A DNA stretch of 42,430 nt from a virus. Shown piece after piece: positions 11,556 to 41,828 of the stretch. The stretch's first letter is position 1; each line of letters opens with the position of its first letter. The stretch lies in the UHGV virus genome UHGV-0382861; one strand, given 5' to 3'. The notes under the pieces are model-generated. The model saw only the letters and a list, made by a program, of their open reading frames with translations. It was not told the origin of the DNA and ran no database searches. A program made the position numbers and the translations under genes.

Positions 11556-11763
11556 TTCAGTACTCCCCAGTGGATTAGTAAAAGGCCCGAAGCCTTTGAT
11601 TAATTCACTGCGCCCCATCATCGGGGCGTTTCAATTTGCGTGACTTATCAGCTCGTCGCGGTGTGGTCCTCTACGCTTACCGTACGCATACGGACTCAGC
11701 GCTTACCTCGATCCCATCGGGTGCCATTTCGTTTTGCCAGGAGCACAGCGGCTTACCTGTCAC

Positions 11764-11776
11764 GCGGTTCTGTTTG
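11764..11776 (-). promoter_or_regulatory. boxA-like element (CGCTCTTTAACAA) in the early-left leader
   Basis: Minus-strand CGCTCTTTAACAA matches the rrn/lambda nut boxA consensus GCTCTTTAACAA at 12/12, about 30 nt downstream of the predicted start site. Confidence 0.4.
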
Positions 11777-15427: not shown

Positions 15428-15862
15428 ATGCGTAATATTCAACAGGTTTTAGAGCGCTGGGGTGGCTGGGCTGCCGATAGCAACACCGCGGTGAGCTGGG
15501 CGCCAATAGCTGCTGGGTTTAAGGGACTGGTGGTCAGCAGTTCGTCCAGCAGGCTGAGTTGCTGCGATGACGACGGGCTGGTTATTGATGCCTGCGTCTG
15601 TCGTCTGCAGCAGGTCCGCAAGCCCGAGGAGCTGGACGTCATAATGCTGTACTACGTCTACGGGTTGACCAAGCGTGAGATAGGGCGGCGGCGTCGCTGT
15701 TCTGAGGGATTTATCCGCCAGCAGTTGCAGGTAGCAGAGGGATTCATAGAGGGGTGTCTCTGCATGCTGGGCGTGAGACTTCAGATGGATCCTGAGGTCG
15801 AAATTCAAAGGGATGAAAAAAGTATTAGTGCGCTACGCAAAAACTGCGCTACGCTGGTATGA
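15428..15862 (+). CDS. Late-gene antiterminator Q (QuuD/Phage_antitermQ family)
   Basis: 144 aa. 'MRNIQQVLERWGGWAA...IAAGFKGL...CCDDDG' closely follows the QuuD-type Q N-terminus as remembered. AGAGG RBS. Confidence 0.7.
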   Translation: MRNIQQVLERWGGWAADSNTAVSWAPIAAGFKGLVVSSSSSRLSCCDDDGLVIDACVCRLQQVRKPEELDVIMLYYVYGLTKREIGRRRRCSEGFIRQQLQVAEGFIEGCLCMLGVRLQMDPEVEIQRDEKSISALRKNCATLV

Positions 15863-15887
15863 GTTGAATTTCTGACCTCAACGAAGA

Positions 15888-15911
15888 GGCTCCTGCGAGG
15901 GGGCCTTTTTT
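15888..15911 (+). terminator. Intrinsic terminator 26 nt after Q (tR'-like)
   Basis: GGCTCC-tgcgag-GGGGCC (one G-U pair) followed by TTTTTT. Confidence 0.5.
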
Positions 15912-16146
15912 CTTACCCCGTTCAGGGGAAAAGTTAATAAAACAGGATTTTCACTGCGAAAAAACGCTATGCAATTTGCCCCCTGTTTTATGCACGATTT
16001 ATTCACTCATTTTTGTTCGTTTCGTACAGCTTATCTTGCGTAAACACGCCTTTCGCCGCGAATCCGTGGTGAGTGCCGATCGCGTAGTACCGATAACGTA
16101 CATTATGTTAAATCAGGCCGTTTTTTAACAAATTATGGGGGTTGGG

Positions 16147-16698
16147 ATGGATGTGGCAATCATCTGCGCTTCAGGACCCTCTCTCACTATCGCGGACTGC
16201 GCTGCGGCATGCCGTTCTGGCCTCCCGGTCATCGCGGTTAACTCATCATGGCGTGCGGCACCGGGTTGTACTCACATCTACGCGGGTGACCTTCGCTGGT
16301 GGGATATTAACATCCCCGCACTACCTGATGGGCCTGAGCGCTGGACATGCAACCGCAGGGCGCACACCAGGCATGGTCTGAACCTGTTCCCGACTGATAC
16401 CACTGGCACCTTCAATTCAGGGCAGAGGGCGATTCTGTTTGCCCACTGGCTGGGTGCAAAGCGCATCATCCTGCTGGGCTTCGACTGCTCCATCACAAAT
16501 GGCAGCCACTGGCATGGGGACCACACCTGCCTGGACAACCCGACTGCGGCGAACGTGAAGCGCTGGCACGGTGAGTTTGCTCGCGTCGCGCAGCTGCTTC
16601 GCGGGAAGGTCAATATCGTCAACAGCAGCCGCCAGACGGCGCTTAACTGCTTTCGGCGTCAGTCACTCGACGAGGCGCTACGCGAGGCCACATGCTGA
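16147..16698 (+). CDS. GPSL-motif Rossmann protein, DUF115 (Maf/MptE-like) or GT42 sialyltransferase-like putative glycosyltransferase
   Basis: 'VAIICASGPSLT' resembles 'VIIAGNGPSLK' of CstII and DUF115 proteins. 'IILLGFDC' resembles CstII 'IYLSGIDFY'. Alternative ATG at 16135. Confidence 0.45.
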   Translation: MDVAIICASGPSLTIADCAAACRSGLPVIAVNSSWRAAPGCTHIYAGDLRWWDINIPALPDGPERWTCNRRAHTRHGLNLFPTDTTGTFNSGQRAILFAHWLGAKRIILLGFDCSITNGSHWHGDHTCLDNPTAANVKRWHGEFARVAQLLRGKVNIVNSSRQTALNCFRRQSLDEALREATC

Positions 16699-17588
16699 AT
16701 GTACCCCTTTTCATTGAGGGCATGCTGGGGATGGGTGACAACATCTACCAGCGTGCTTTCGTCCGCCAGCTGCCAGCTGGCTCGTTTATCAAAACGCCCT
16801 GGCCGGAGCTGTACGAGGATTTACCCGTCTGCCCGGTGCGCAGCAACACGACGCTGAGAACTCAGCGGAAGAACGAGCACCGCACGCAATCGGTATTCCA
16901 CCCGCTGCCAGATATGCGCCAGACAAAGCGCATTTTCTACGGGCCAGACCATCTGCGGCGCGGGTCGATATTCGACGCAATGCGCCAGCAGTTCGGCACG
17001 GAGCCAGCAGCGCTGGATCTCCCTTCCTTCGGCCCTGCGGAGTTTACGCACGAAAAGCCGATTGCGGTCATCCGCCCGGCCACCGTCCGATCAGAATGGC
17101 GCAGTGATTCGCGCAATCCGGACCCTGATTACCTGCTGAAGGCTTCCCGCATCCTGCGTAAGCATTTCTGCGTGATCAGCGTGGCCGATTTGCAGGACGG
17201 CGAGGAATGGGCCGTCGGCGAGCTGCCAGAAGCTGATCTGCGGCTTCATGGTGGTGAGCTTGGTTTCAAATCGCTGATGCGCCTTGTTGAGCATGCTGCT
17301 GTGGTGGTAACGCCTGTTGGCTGGGCGCTGCCCGCAGCGATTGCCTACAAAACACCTGTCTACGTTGTAGCGGGCGGGCGTGGCGGGCACAACGCCCCGG
17401 AAATCGTAACCGATCCGGCGATGGACCTTTCTCGTGTTGGCTGGGCAATTCCCGACAATTACTGCCGCTGTGAAGAGTGGGACCACCACTGTGACAAGCG
17501 GATCTCCAATTTCACTAACAAATTCGAGGCCTGGCTCCATGAAGTCGTTTTATCAGGAACTGGAACGCGGGCTGGTGTTTCTGCCTGA
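16692..17588 (+). CDS. Glycosyltransferase family 9-like (heptosyltransferase / BAHT-like)
   Basis: N-terminal 'GMLGMGDNIYQRAFVRQL' resembles GT9 'SLGDVIHTLPALRAL'. C-terminal 'LHGGELGFKSLMRLVEHAAVVVTPVGWALPAAIAYKTPVYVVAG' resembles GT9 'LAGKTSLRELAALIAGARLFVGNDSGPMHLAAALGTPTVALFG'. Confidence 0.5.
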   Translation: MLNVPLFIEGMLGMGDNIYQRAFVRQLPAGSFIKTPWPELYEDLPVCPVRSNTTLRTQRKNEHRTQSVFHPLPDMRQTKRIFYGPDHLRRGSIFDAMRQQFGTEPAALDLPSFGPAEFTHEKPIAVIRPATVRSEWRSDSRNPDPDYLLKASRILRKHFCVISVADLQDGEEWAVGELPEADLRLHGGELGFKSLMRLVEHAAVVVTPVGWALPAAIAYKTPVYVVAGGRGGHNAPEIVTDPAMDLSRVGWAIPDNYCRCEEWDHHCDKRISNFTNKFEAWLHEVVLSGTGTRAGVSA

Positions 17589-18153
17589 GCTGGGGATCGG
17601 TCGATATCCGGTACCGCCAGCTAGGCCGTATAACTCGCAATATTTTGCTAAGTATCAGGCTTATGCAGATACGGAGACCGGTCGTGCGCTCACGCAGGCG
17701 CGTATCGATCTTGTGGCGCGGCATTACAGCGGTCTGGTACTCGATGTGGGAATCGGGGCCGGACAGTTCGTGTCCACGCGAGCAGAAACGGTGGGCTACG
17801 ACGTTAACCCTGCTGGGGTCTCCTGGCTGAAAGATAACGGATGTTTCGTTGACCTCTACGCTGAGGGGGCTCCGGCCCTGACATTCTGGGATAGCCTGGA
17901 GCACATCGACGACCCGGTTTGTGCAGTTCAGCAGGCCGGACAGTTCGTGTTTGTCTCTATCCCGATTTTCAAAGATGCCGAAGACATTCTGGCATCACAC
18001 CACTACAAGAAAGACGAGCATATCTGGTACTTCACCGATGAGGGCTTGCGGCGCTGGTTTGCGGAGCAGGGCTTCGAATGTGTGGAGCACAACGAGATCG
18101 AGTGCGAGCTCGGGCGCAAAGGGGTTGGTACTTACGCTTTCAAGCGTTTCTGA
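17539..18153 (+). CDS. Class I SAM-dependent methyltransferase
   Basis: Motif I 'VLDVGIGAG', post-I 'GYDV', 'FWDSLEHI'. Start tentatively ATG 17539 (50-nt overlap with the upstream gene); a GTG at about 17575 is possible. Confidence 0.6.
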   Translation: MKSFYQELERGLVFLPELGIGRYPVPPARPYNSQYFAKYQAYADTETGRALTQARIDLVARHYSGLVLDVGIGAGQFVSTRAETVGYDVNPAGVSWLKDNGCFVDLYAEGAPALTFWDSLEHIDDPVCAVQQAGQFVFVSIPIFKDAEDILASHHYKKDEHIWYFTDEGLRRWFAEQGFECVEHNEIECELGRKGVGTYAFKRF

Positions 18154-18168
18154 GTTGACCCTCATTTT

Positions 18169-18192
18169 GCCCGCTTCGGCGGGCGCTTTTTT
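18169..18192 (+). terminator. Strong intrinsic terminator between the methyltransferase gene and holin
   Basis: GCCCGC-TTCG-GCGGGC followed by GC and TTTTTT. Confidence 0.7.
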
Positions 18193-18224: not shown

Positions 18225-18545
18225 ATGCAACGTATGAACCCAACAAATGGACATGACCTGCCGTACTGGTGGTCAGCTGCTTTAGGGTTGTTCTCTTTGC
18301 TTAGCCTGCAGGATTACGTATTTATTATCGGTGCCCTCGTATCGGCGTTTTTCACGATAAAAACCTATTACGCAAAACGCAAAGAAGAGCGTGAGCGTAT
18401 GGCAGAGGAAAGAAAAAGAACCCAGCTGCTGGCGAACTATCTATCTGATGTAGGTAAAAAACCCCACTCCGATCGTCCGGCTGCAGCCGAGGTTGTAACG
18501 GGGGCTATGCGGAGAATTTCCAGTGGCACAATTGAAACTGAGTAA
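18225..18545 (+). CDS. Holin (two TM segments) with dual-start motif
   Basis: GGAGG RBS. 'MQRM' with Met1 and Met4 gives a lambda S105/S107-like antiholin/holin pair. TM1 'WWSAALGLFSLLSL', TM2 'VFIIGALVSAFFTI'. Charged C-terminus. Confidence 0.65.
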   Translation: MQRMNPTNGHDLPYWWSAALGLFSLLSLQDYVFIIGALVSAFFTIKTYYAKRKEERERMAEERKRTQLLANYLSDVGKKPHSDRPAAAEVVTGAMRRISSGTIETE

Positions 18546-19059
18546 GAAAAGCGGAGCGACCGGGATTGTTTGCTCAGTCGCTACGATTATCGCAATAGTG
18601 GTCAATGCGGGGCACGTTCGAACCAATGAACGTGGTCTGGAGCTAATCGGGAATGCAGAATCTTGTCGTCGTGACCCTTATGTTTGCCCCGCTGGCGTGC
18701 TCACCGATGGCATGGGAAACACCCACGGCGTTAAACCCGGCACAGTTAAAAACGACCAGCAGATCGCGGCTGAATGGGAAAAAAATATCCTCGATGCTGA
18801 ATCCTGCGTTAACCGGTACGCCAACGGCAAAAATCTCAGCGACAATACCTTTTCTGCAGTAACGTCAATTACCTTTAATGTCGGGTGCCCAACGATGAAG
18901 CAGTCGACAATGTTTGCATTATTTCGCGAGCAGAAATCGGCGTGGCCATCAGCCTGTGACCAGTTCCCCCGCTGGGTGTATGCAGGGAAGACTATTCTCC
19001 CGGGCCTTGTTAAGCGGCGCGACGCAGAGAAACAGCTCTGTCTGGATGGGCTGAAATGA
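18523..19059 (+). CDS. SAR endolysin (GH24 lysozyme with N-terminal signal-arrest-release domain)
   Basis: N-terminal 'KKSGATGIVCSVATIIAIVVNAG' followed by 'ERGLELIGNAESCRRDPY...GVLTDGMGNT', an E-D-T lysozyme triad pattern. Confidence 0.75.
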   Translation: MAQLKLSKKSGATGIVCSVATIIAIVVNAGHVRTNERGLELIGNAESCRRDPYVCPAGVLTDGMGNTHGVKPGTVKNDQQIAAEWEKNILDAESCVNRYANGKNLSDNTFSAVTSITFNVGCPTMKQSTMFALFREQKSAWPSACDQFPRWVYAGKTILPGLVKRRDAEKQLCLDGLK

Positions 19060-19601
19060 TCACCCTGGCCGATATCAAAGCCTCATGGCGTCTGATACTG
19101 CTGGTGGCCGTCATTGCGGTAGTCGCCGTGCTGTGTGTCCTGCTGGCAAACAGCCGTTCTGACGTTGCTATGCTGAAGAGTGATAATGACGTTCTGCGCA
19201 GTGATAACACCCTACAGGGGACGGTTATCGCTGCACAGGCTTTCAACTTCAACCGGTTTAACCAGGTTGCCGAAAACGCCAGCCGATTAAACTCACTGAT
19301 TGATGCCAGCTCCGATAAAACCGTTATCGAGTATCGGGAGATCCTCCGCCGTGAAAAAACCTGTGATCTGCCTGTTCCTGCTGATGTCGCTGGTGGGCTG
19401 CTCAGCTACGCGAACAGTTTACGTGCCAGCGCAATGCACGCCGATCCCAGGGGCGCTGACGCAGCCAGTGTTAGCGCCACTACCACCAGCGCGCTGACGT
19501 ATTGCCAGGCTGTTCTCTGGATTAAGCCGCTGCTGGCCGCTATCGAAAAAGCGAATAACCAGCTGGCGGGCATCCGTCAAATCGAGCAGGACAGGCAATA
19601 G
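19056..19601 (+). CDS. Rz: Rz-like i-spanin
   Basis: N-terminal TM 'WRLILLVAVIAVVAVLCVLLA', then a coiled-coil periplasmic domain. Confidence 0.65.
   Translation: MITLADIKASWRLILLVAVIAVVAVLCVLLANSRSDVAMLKSDNDVLRSDNTLQGTVIAAQAFNFNRFNQVAENASRLNSLIDASSDKTVIEYREILRREKTCDLPVPADVAGGLLSYANSLRASAMHADPRGADAASVSATTTSALTYCQAVLWIKPLLAAIEKANNQLAGIRQIEQDRQ
19351..19497 (+). CDS. Rz1: Rz1-like o-spanin lipoprotein embedded in the +1 frame of Rz
   Basis: GTG start at 19351 after GGGAG. Product MKKPVICLFLLMSLVG|CSATRTVYVPAQCTPIPGALTQPVLAPLPPAR has a lipobox LVGC and a Pro-rich mature peptide. Confidence 0.6.
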   Translation: MKKPVICLFLLMSLVGCSATRTVYVPAQCTPIPGALTQPVLAPLPPAR

Positions 19602-40706: not shown

Positions 40707-41828
40707 TCAACTCAGAGCAGGACCACTATGCTTGCGTCGGATCAGTTTCACGCCTGGTTTTTCGATGTATAAATGACACACATAAGCCATTAATAACGAA
40801 AGTATAAGTATTATGAAAAAACTATTTGTGCCATTAAAATCCGGCATGTAATCCGTAAATAAGCGGTTCACAAACCAGTGACACAGGTAAAGAGAAAAAG
40901 ATATATTCCCTAAAAACATTAGAGAATGAATGCTTTTTTGGAATGATGATAGTTCGTAGAAAAGGAACATAAGAGCGAATGGGATAGCCATGAAAATAAA
41001 ACCACCGTAACCTAGTACGTTAGAGATATTTCCAGTGTATGGTTTGTAAATCCCAAACCACAGACCTACGTCATTGCAGAATATAGTGACTGATAAAATT
41101 GTGGATATCACGAAAAGAGCTCGCCACGCTATCACTGGAATTGTTGATTTTTGAAGGGATAAATACGCCTTGCATAGAATAATTCCTAATACAAACTCAT
41201 AAATCATTGTACTGCTAACAATGTGCAATGCTTGTGAATACAATCCATTTCCATGAACGTTAACCGAAGCGGAGGAAGAAAGAGAAAACTCCCCATTAAA
41301 ATGGTACTGCAAAGCTACAGGCAACGTAAGCAAAACAACGGACGCTATCTCCCCCCTAAATCGATTGGATAGCAGGGAACAAATAAGAAAAATGGCATAG
41401 AAATAAATCTCATAAGTTAATGTCCATGCCACGCCGACCATGCTAAAACCAAAGCCAGGCGCTGGAGCTTGATAATTGTGATGAAAAAGGAAAAATCCCC
41501 TTATGACTGATGTAAGGTCAAATTTAGTGAAGAATAAAAATGTAGATATTATGAATATAAACCAATAGAGAGGGAATATTCTGAATGCCCGCTTTATAAT
41601 GAATTTCTTTGGGTTTAATTCGCTGCTATTTTTTGTGATGAAATAAATTATAAAACCACTGATAATAAAAAATATATCAACACCACCACGACCATTGTTA
41701 AAAATCGGTGCAATATTATCAGGTAGCCTTTCCTTTAGGTGGAATAGAACAACCATCAACGCAGCAATGCCACGCATATATTGCAAGCCCAAAATGGTAC
41801 CATTCCTGTTACGCTGCCTTTCCATCAT
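40707..41828 (-). CDS. Acyltransferase family 3 membrane protein (O-antigen/LPS O-acetylase-like)
   Basis: 373 aa, about 10 predicted TM helices. N-terminal 'LQYMRGIAALMVVLFH' acyl_transf_3 signature. GC about 33%. Confidence 0.75.
   Translation of the reverse strand: MMERQRNRNGTILGLQYMRGIAALMVVLFHLKERLPDNIAPIFNNGRGGVDIFFIISGFIIYFITKNSSELNPKKFIIKRAFRIFPLYWFIFIISTFLFFTKFDLTSVIRGFFLFHHNYQAPAPGFGFSMVGVAWTLTYEIYFYAIFLICSLLSNRFRGEIASVVLLTLPVALQYHFNGEFSLSSSASVNVHGNGLYSQALHIVSSTMIYEFVLGIILCKAYLSLQKSTIPVIAWRALFVISTILSVTIFCNDVGLWFGIYKPYTGNISNVLGYGGFIFMAIPFALMFLFYELSSFQKSIHSLMFLGNISFSLYLCHWFVNRLFTDYMPDFNGTNSFFIILILSLLMAYVCHLYIEKPGVKLIRRKHSGPALS

Follow-up and report, generated by a model that had tools for sequence, protein, structure and literature searches.

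O-antigen conversion and DNA glucosylation are familiar roles of phage-encoded glycosyltransferases. Glycosylation of the virion itself has, to our knowledge, been known since 2023 and only in mycobacteriophages; we know of no demonstration yet for phages of Gram-negative bacteria. Here we analyze a cassette of three genes, designated ORF1, ORF2, and ORF3 (ORF, open reading frame), in the virus genome UHGV-0382861. The whole stretch of DNA that was analyzed, 42,430 nucleotides (nt) in length, is referred to as the window. The cassette lies between the genes for the late-gene antiterminator Q and the holin, and encodes a small Maf-like protein, a glycosyltransferase-like protein, and a methyltransferase.

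According to the accounts of Freeman 2023 contained in PMC12363180 and PMC12894461, mycobacteriophages attach glycans to proteins of the capsid and the tail tube by means of their own glycosyltransferases. No other established virion glycosylation of tailed phages was found in our literature search. In a second described system, phage enzymes of the glycosyltransferase B (GT-B) fold place heptose and 3-deoxy-D-manno-oct-2-ulosonic acid (Kdo) from host lipopolysaccharide (LPS) precursor pools on 5-hydroxymethylcytosine (5hmC) (bioRxiv 10.1101/2023.12.21.572611).

The trio is best read as a self-contained module that is exchanged among phages as a unit. We propose, with a probability of about 45%, that it is a late module which takes nucleotide sugars from the host and adds sugars and methyl groups to a virion protein, probably one of the head or neck. 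We rate the cassette as phage-encoded glycosylation machinery drawn from enzyme families not previously tied to phage particles.

Three overlapping genes under purifying selection

The cassette consists of three genes on the same strand:

16135..16698, + strand: ORF1, a small transferase-like protein resembling the Maf core (DUF115, MptE-like); 187 residues in the ORF scan, 183 residues from the likely ATG at 16147
16692..17588, + strand: ORF2, a GT-B glycosyltransferase-like protein with a fold like that of glycosyltransferase family 9 (GT9) and TibC; 298 residues
17539..18153, + strand: ORF3, a class I S-adenosylmethionine (SAM)-dependent methyltransferase; 204 residues, with a mechanical ORF call of 17434–18153 that begins at GTG 17434

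ORF1 and ORF2 overlap by 7 nt, and ORF2 and ORF3 by 50 nt. For ORF1, the ATG at 16147 is a likelier start than 16135 because the homologues are 183 residues long. The true start of ORF3 is the ATG at 17539, since the match to its PHROG family begins at residue 38 and the annotated homologues have 204 residues.

Exact look-ups place the window phage in Citrobacter koseri: the encoded proteins are identical to ATF98566–ATF98568, two of which are annotated as "hypothetical protein" and one as "methyltransferase domain-containing protein". Comparison with a copy in an E. coli prophage (~75% nucleotide identity) yields ratios of nonsynonymous to synonymous substitution rates (dN/dS) of 0.07 for ORF1, 0.06 for ORF2, and 0.11 for ORF3, with synonymous sites near saturation. 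ORF1–ORF3 are thus real genes under strong purifying selection. No membrane-spanning segment could be read from the sequences of the three proteins.

The GC content is 0.58–0.61 in the cassette, 0.49–0.52 in the immediate flanks, and about 0.54–0.58 in the structural genes. The original prediction, made from the sequence of the window, that the cassette is no AT-rich insertion is borne out, and its composition is not atypical.

Predicted folds and conserved motifs

ORF1 matches a PHROG family with an expectation value (E) of 1.4e-49. It scores 31.1 bits against PF01973 (MptE-like/DUF115), just under the gathering score of 34.6, and a precomputed PF01973 match is carried by most of its close homologues. 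Two motifs, SGPSL and HWHGxH, are invariant. The GPSL motif is a hallmark of DUF115/Maf proteins. AlphaFold2 models of ORF2 and ORF1 were built from 76 and 79 homologues and reach predicted local distance difference test (pLDDT) scores of 94.5 and 93.3, respectively. Structure comparison of the ORF1 model identifies its fold as that of the Maf central domain. Searches with single sequences and profiles of ORF1 and ORF2 against Protein Data Bank (PDB) sequences returned nothing significant. A weak sugar-kinase match of ORF1 in the same sequence set (E 0.007–0.009) covers only a C-terminal stretch and was set aside in favor of the fold results.

ORF2 matches a PHROG family with an E of 1.2e-113. 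Its model has a GT-B fold whose nearest structural neighbors are GT9 enzymes, with the closest similarity to the protein heptosyltransferases TibC/AAH. No Pfam family is matched at E ≤ 0.1, PF01075 (Glyco_transf_9) included. NCBIfam gave no usable match for the cassette and none for ORF2. With the profile of 76 homologues, WaaF in the PDB is reached at an E no better than 0.29. When ORF2 is aligned by hhalign to E. coli WaaC/F/Q/U, the probability is 81% and the E is 1.2e-5, for a GT9 side of 4 sequences and a span restricted to residues 146–289, the C-terminal, nucleotide-sugar-binding domain. The N-terminal domains are not aligned by hhalign. Here, an invariant G13-x-G15-D16 follows the first β-strand of ORF2 and resembles the invariant G12-D13 of WaaC/F/Q/U, which likewise comes after the first strand and includes D13, the catalytic Asp of WaaC. 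Near the C terminus, ORF2 contains an invariant cluster, C258-x-C260-x4-H265-x-C267; WaaC/F/Q/U have no invariant cysteine. The charge of the N-terminal domain was considered as a means of telling membrane from protein acceptors; the domain is basic like those of WaaC and WaaF, and the test does not discriminate. Judged by its model, ORF2 is related to GT9 in structure, but by sequence it does not belong to the family.

Elsewhere, ORF2-like domains share a polypeptide with genuine GT9 domains (PF01075), with a methyltransferase domain, or with a LicD domain, each a partner in building glycans. The protein P0294 (1214 residues) combines ORF2-like, MptE-like, and canonical GT9 domains. P0247 joins an ORF2-like to a LicD domain, and P0276 joins one to a Methyltransf_11 domain. 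In P0307, which contains an ORF2-like domain, the canonical GT9 domain is interrupted by an intein with a LAGLIDADG domain.

ORF3 matches phrog_6564 (E 1.4e-86) and PF13489 (Methyltransf_23), the latter with 37 bits against a gathering score of 27. Its motif I reads DVGIGAGQF, and 12 diverse homologues all share residues D69, G71, G73, and G75. Among solved sequences, those of UbiG-type O-methyltransferases come closest, with a weak match (E 0.007). The D/N-PP-Y/F motif of DNA methyltransferases is absent from ORF3.

The family and fold assignments of the original prediction, a GPSL-motif Rossmann protein of the Maf/DUF115 type, a GT-B enzyme resembling GT9, and a SAM methyltransferase of class I, therefore hold in the models, the structure comparison, and the profiles. 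For ORF2, this applies to the GT-B fold; membership in GT9 itself finds no PF01075 match, and the profile–profile likeness is confined to the C-terminal domain. The sugars named in that prediction, heptose and nonulosonate, were guesses, and no nonulosonate biosynthesis genes occur in the cassette or its surroundings.

A mechanistic variant, compatible with any target, would make ORF1 a (pyro)phosphokinase. ORF2 would add a sugar, ORF1 would phosphorylate it, and ORF3 would methylate the phosphate or the sugar. The product would be a methyl-phosphate-type cap like the cap placed on the O9a antigen by the kinase-methyltransferase WbdD. The Pfam family touched by ORF1 is indeed the MptE-like pyrophosphokinase family, the locus lacks genes for CMP-sugar synthesis (CMP, cytidine monophosphate), and the pairing of a kinase with a methyltransferase is a known capping logic, as in WbdD. 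The GPSL motif of ORF1, on the other hand, belongs to DUF115/Maf proteins, and we regard the variant as rather improbable.

The cassette as a mobile unit

Two sets of search patterns detected relatives of ORF2 on at least 583 and 542 IMG/VR contigs, respectively. In a collection of 1.84 billion representatives, these relatives account for 855 clusters at 50% identity. The complete trio, arranged as ORF1, ORF2, ORF3, is found at 80/80 enterobacterial and 80/80 Pseudomonas-type IMG/VR loci, apart from cuts at contig ends. Natural fusions of ORF1 and ORF2 also exist, as proteins of 501–504 residues. The carriers include prophages of clinically relevant Enterobacteriaceae and of Pseudomonas aeruginosa, and among 5,426 complete genomes of E. 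coli, only 9 hold the full cassette.

Between loci with unrelated flanks, nucleotide homology extends over 16155–18141, that is, from the start of ORF1 to the stop of ORF3, and leaves both terminators outside. The hairpin at 18168–18192 is accordingly no part of the mobile module, as homology ends at 18141.

A 94%-identical relative of the window phage, in E. coli Sx181-0-1 (NZ_CP078137; locus L002, 6736–7320), has retained an intact ORF1 with a changed C terminus and lacks ORF2 and ORF3. A different holin pair directly follows ORF1 in their place. In the annotation of this record, just the last 285 nt of ORF1 are given as a gene.

Databases have contained these genes ever since the sequencing of D3 and P1, and their families are listed in PHROGs. 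Relatives already deposited include D3 orf7/12/13, PAJU2 gp10–12, and P1 PmgO. D3 and PAJU2 grow on standard P. aeruginosa strains. Public records label the proteins of the trio "hypothetical protein", "alpha-2,3-sialyltransferase", or "morphogenetic protein", and one PHROG family carries a transferred "alpha-2,3-sialyltransferase" label. The literature searched for PmgO/PmgP/PmgQ, PAJU2, the D3 orfs, DUF115 in phages, virion glycosylation, and phage sialyltransferase contains no functional study of these genes. The earlier impression that such a pair had not been described is supported, as to function, by the literature searched; as database entries, with relatives in D3, PAJU2, and P1, the genes are neither rare nor new.

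Positions in phage genomes

The trio occupies several distinct positions. In enterobacterial lambdoid phages, it follows Q, with several families of Q and several holin/endolysin sets that are unrelated to one another (loci L001 and L007–L058). At other enterobacterial loci (L059–L086), it lies after the lysis genes and before terS/terL of an HK97-type head. The D3-type arrangement, seen at about 68 Pseudomonas loci, is split: capsid, ORF1, head–tail adaptor, head closure, ORF2, ORF3, gp10-like, and tail terminator. The PAJU2-type loci have the order head closure, ORF1, ORF2, ORF3, and gp10-like. The order capsid, trio, connector is shared by Psp6, a Cellvibrio prophage, and a metagenomic fusion locus. 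The trio lies between the capsid and tail tube genes in Enterobacter phage Mulvp2. It stands as a separate small operon in the jumbo phage Eowyn, and a T4-like cyanophage has ORF2 and ORF3 next to its gp14 neck gene.

The major capsid gene and the head–tail connector genes enclose the module in at least six phage lineages that are unrelated to one another. In most lineages, the trio is translationally coupled within a capsid–neck operon and has no promoter or terminator of its own. The original prediction had tied the cassette to the "toxin slot" between Q and the holin. That slot turns out to be one of at least four homes, and most other lineages keep the trio in the capsid–neck block. This embedding shifts the odds from cargo directed at the host or its LPS toward modification of the virion.

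Several annotations of these relatives deserve comment. The ORF1 homologue of Mulvp2 (L005, 6511–7011) is unannotated and falls in an annotation gap. In D3 (L004, 5849–6409), the ORF1 match starts about 100 nt 5' of the annotated start of orf7, so this gene is probably annotated too short. A KilA-N/ORF11CD3 gene separates head closure from ORF2 in D3 (L004, 7184–7684) and in about 11 D3-type loci and is missing from most relatives; the neck region therefore tolerates insertions. PAJU2 ORF010 (L003/L087, 7780–8349), a homologue of ORF1, carries the depositor label "structural protein". Within PAJU2 ORF001–018, the part of the record that was covered, the sole other products so labeled are the capsid fusion protein and the major tail protein. 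It hints that an enzyme of the ORF1 type may be present in virions.

Phage P1 contains two side-by-side paralogues of the ORF1 type, PmgO and PmgP (L089, 5593–6779), which are weakly MptE-like/DUF115 and belong to an operon that is late and termed "putative morphogenetic". Next come the Ser/Thr phosphatase gene ppp and then pmgQ, labeled as a glycosyltransferase in RefSeq. All four are non-essential by CRISPR interference (CRISPRi), and PmgO/PmgP are not needed for plaque formation. The varied genomic homes, the relative with ORF1 only, the non-essential P1 genes, and the occurrence in 9 of 5,426 E. coli genomes together establish the trio as a dispensable, mobile unit that is always co-oriented with late genes.

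The P1 operon, in which PmgO and PmgP are accessory, adjoin a phosphatase gene, and are dispensable for plaques, also bears on another explanation, takeover of the host or counter-defence. The trio would then modify a host protein or a small molecule, either by consuming or altering ADP-heptose (ADP, adenosine diphosphate) or CMP-Kdo or by glycosylating a host factor, and would leave the virion untouched. Portability across phage backbones argues for a target that is independent of the backbone, and the nearest structural relatives of ORF1 and ORF2 both act on cytoplasmic proteins. Genes of this kind are normally early, however, whereas the trio is late or structural in every context seen, and its repeated placement between capsid and connector genes would be left unexplained. 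Known defence and anti-defence models show no similarity to the trio. The PADLOC models of anti-phage defence gave no match, so the trio is not a known defence component. We consider a role in takeover quite unlikely.

Surroundings and expression in the window

The window holds a complete temperate phage with a contractile tail. Its genes include those for a VapE-type primase/helicase, Q, the lysis cassette, terminase, portal, capsid, sheath, tape measure, baseplate, and fibre; the head module contains a portal of phrog_146 and a major head protein of phrog_264. The features flanking the trio are as follows:

15428..15862, + strand: antiterminator Q, the activator of late-gene transcription (PF06530 Phage_antitermQ, E 2.6e-51; phrog_79, E 7e-45)
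15883..15912, + strand: intrinsic-terminator-like hairpin followed by a T-run, found by terminator scan 21 nt past the Q stop codon
15920..16134, + strand: conserved non-coding leader that abuts the 5' side of ORF1 (blastn, MAFFT)
18168..18192, + strand: intrinsic-terminator-like hairpin (GCCCGC-UUCG-GCGGGC) followed by a T-run, found by terminator scan between ORF3 and the holin gene
18225..19601, + strand: lysis cassette, composed of holin (18225–18545; phrog_1350, E 6.6e-32), endolysin (18523–19059; PF00959, E 2.4e-29), and Rz (19056–19601; phrog_214, E 2.3e-55)

The ORF, terminator, and profile scans agree with the originally described layout of three co-oriented, overlapping genes bounded by Q and a terminator on one side and by a second terminator and the holin on the other. 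The first hairpin folds as RNA with a free energy (dG) of −17.3 kcal/mol and a z-score of −3.27, and 0/200 shuffled sequences fold as well. The second hairpin has a dG of −13.7 kcal/mol and a z-score of −2.73. No tRNA or Rfam family was found in the window, the cassette slot included.

The leader, 215 nt in length, is homologous to the terS–terL spacer of other lambdoid phages, with 68–89% identity (L018 at 11598–11774, L024, and L026). The alignments by blastn and MAFFT contain long invariant blocks, among them AAAACGCTATGCA, TTTATGCACG.TTTATTCA, and CATTATGTTAAAT. The leader matches no Rfam family, and RNAalifold predicts base pairs from four sequences with almost no covariation.

From the 3' end of Q to ORF1, there is no sigma-70 promoter that agrees with the consensus at 8 or more of 12 positions; the best candidate reaches 7/12. 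Sequence from 15881 onward is common to the window phage and a relative whose Q differs (41% identity), which would put the first hairpin 3' of each phage's own Q-dependent promoter. Late, Q-dependent expression of the cassette, as originally proposed, is plausible, but no late promoter could be located. Either hairpin may therefore be the Q-controlled terminator.

Two further genes of the window may be mentioned. An ORF at 19300–19497 (+ strand) lies within Rz in the +1 frame and encodes a lipobox (LVGC) and a proline-rich tail, features to be expected of an Rz1-type o-spanin nested in Rz. At the right end of the prophage, a gene at 40707–41828 (− strand) resembles O-acetyltransferases and O-antigen acetylases (phrog_3333, E 1.6e-59) and lies in an AT-rich stretch with a GC content of 0.37–0.43, which gives it the typical look of a lysogenic-conversion moron.

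The slot and the acetylase-like gene are pertinent to a further explanation, in which the trio modifies the host envelope by adding heptose or an ulosonic acid and a methyl group to the LPS inner core or to another lipid-linked glycan. The modification could serve lysogenic conversion, or it could mask receptors late in infection and so keep progeny and superinfecting phages from adsorbing to lysing cells. The slot in the window is a lambdoid home of host-directed cargo, and the same prophage carries the acetylase-like moron. Presence on unrelated phage backbones suits a host target, the C-terminal domain of ORF2 is linked to WaaC/F/Q/U by hhalign, and the basic character of its N-terminal domain is shared with WaaC and WaaF. 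The coupling of the trio into capsid–neck operons in most lineages speaks against an envelope role, as do the lack of a sigma-70 promoter upstream of ORF1 in the window and of a membrane-spanning segment in any of the three proteins. LPS made in the last minutes before lysis would, moreover, barely reach the cell surface. The known serotype-converting genes of D3 lie elsewhere in its genome, which also counts against it. In sum, an envelope target appears unlikely.

Proposed role in virion glycosylation

In the reading that we favor, ORF1, ORF2, and ORF3 would act in turn in the cytoplasm during particle assembly. The trio must draw on nucleotide-sugar pools of the host because the module carries no sugar-activation genes. 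A candidate donor for ORF2 is ADP-heptose, which would be taken from the pool of the host (Enterobacteriaceae, Pseudomonas), and a candidate donor for ORF1 is a CMP-ulosonic acid such as CMP-Kdo. ORF1 and ORF2 would build a short glycan, which ORF3 would O-methylate, and a structural protein in the head or neck of the phage would serve as the acceptor. The trio is accessory rather than essential and, in the Citrobacter koseri prophage, is positioned at the front of the late operon between Q and holin.

A virion protein is favored as the acceptor for four reasons. The module lies repeatedly between capsid and connector genes and is translationally coupled to them. Its nearest structural neighbors, Maf and TibC, are cytoplasmic protein O-glycosyltransferases. 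The ORF1 homologue of PAJU2 is labeled as a structural protein. Finally, mycobacteriophages provide the precedent of phages that glycosylate their own capsid and tail tube.

Several observations weigh against this assignment. The head types of the carriers are unrelated and comprise the phrog_146/phrog_264 module of the window, HK97-like heads, a protease-fused capsid, T4-like heads, and jumbo phage heads. Free movement of the module between backbones is at least as compatible with a target that does not depend on the backbone, be it the host envelope, a host protein, or DNA, as with a virion protein. No convincing Ser/Thr-rich tail is found on the capsid, tube, or sheath proteins of the window phage. 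With a pI of 9.0, the N-terminal half of ORF2 is basic like those of WaaC and WaaF. The PAJU2 label is not traceable to data. With no late promoter found, late-only expression in this prophage is an inference.

DNA is the least probable of these targets. Under this explanation, the glycosyltransferase-like enzymes would put sugars on bases of the virion DNA shortly before packaging. The GT-B enzymes acting on 5hmC offer a phage precedent, and late expression beside packaging and head genes is compatible with it. The 5hmC pathways, however, need a C5-cytosine methyltransferase and a TET-like dioxygenase, both of which are absent here. ORF3 is Methyltransf_23/UbiG-like and lacks DNA-methyltransferase motifs, ORF2 resembles GT9/TibC and not T4 β-glucosyltransferase, and the cassette is not near replication genes. 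Hypermodification of virion DNA is thus very improbable.

The reading as virion glycosylation can be extended beyond the window. It is possible, and we put it forward only tentatively, that many phages of Gram-negative bacteria, both temperate and lytic and including the relatives of the classical phage D3, decorate capsid or neck proteins with a short O-methylated glycan made from LPS-core precursors (ADP-heptose, possibly CMP-Kdo) by a complex of a Maf-like, a TibC-like, and a methyltransferase protein. If this is true, virion glycosylation would be widespread outside actinobacteriophages, where it has gone unrecognised, with consequences for adsorption, stability, or immune recognition. Glycosylation of virions by the trio would bear on the pharmacology of phage therapy through antibody and innate recognition, and on how particles meet mucus or proteins that bind LPS. 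A Maf-like/GT9-like pair acting on proteins other than flagellins and autotransporters would be a further addition.

Comparison with known systems

The trio shares with stx, nanS-p, and similar morons the lambdoid slot after Q and its terminator and before the holin, with a terminator behind. It differs from this cargo in that it also occupies at least three other late-operon positions and is not AT-rich. A moron of this slot that is an autonomous unit would have a promoter or terminator of its own and an atypical composition. The trio is not of this kind: its homology stops at the coding boundaries, 16155–18141, its genes adjoin tightly and bring along no regulatory signals, and no promoter was found.

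The phage glycosyltransferases that act on 5hmC with Kdo or heptose are similar to the trio in that GT-B enzymes of a phage use the LPS sugar-nucleotide pools of the host. Those enzymes are T4 β-glucosyltransferase-like and have C5-methyltransferase and TET partners; none of this is found here.

The GT9 enzymes WaaC and WaaF (1psw, 2h1f) belong to the PF01075 family and are encoded in the waa locus. ORF2, in contrast, has no PF01075 match, is shorter at 298 residues, and is encoded in phage late operons. It carries an invariant Cys3-His cluster that WaaC/F/Q/U lack.

TibC/AAH (4rap) are encoded beside their autotransporter substrate, whereas at each of the loci examined ORF2 neighbors Q, lysis, or capsid/neck genes. 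In length, ORF2 falls short of TibC/AAH by about 100 residues. TibC/AAH possess an iron site made of conserved cysteines; in ORF2, the invariant residues that might form such a site are C258, C260, H265, and C267.

The Maf flagellin glycosyltransferases (DUF115/PF01973; 5mu5) are represented by a Maf of 632 residues with flanking helical domains, and ORF1 corresponds to the catalytic core only, with 183–187 residues. Unlike the Maf systems, ORF1 has no flagellin or flagellar genes nearby, and neither the window nor any of the related loci examined contains genes for CMP-nonulosonate synthesis.

Virion glycosylation in the mycobacteriophages Che8, Corndog, and Myrna depends on phage glycosyltransferases and reportedly also on a methyltransferase. 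The host there is an actinobacterium, and the trio belongs to different enzyme families; no sequence link between the two systems was noticed, although no comparison of their enzymes was made. The mycobacteriophage type is characterized by glycosyltransferase and methyltransferase genes in or beside the structural operon. The trio has the same arrangement in D3, PAJU2, Psp6, Mulvp2, the Cellvibrio prophage, and the cyanophage; in the window, it stands at the head of the late operon.

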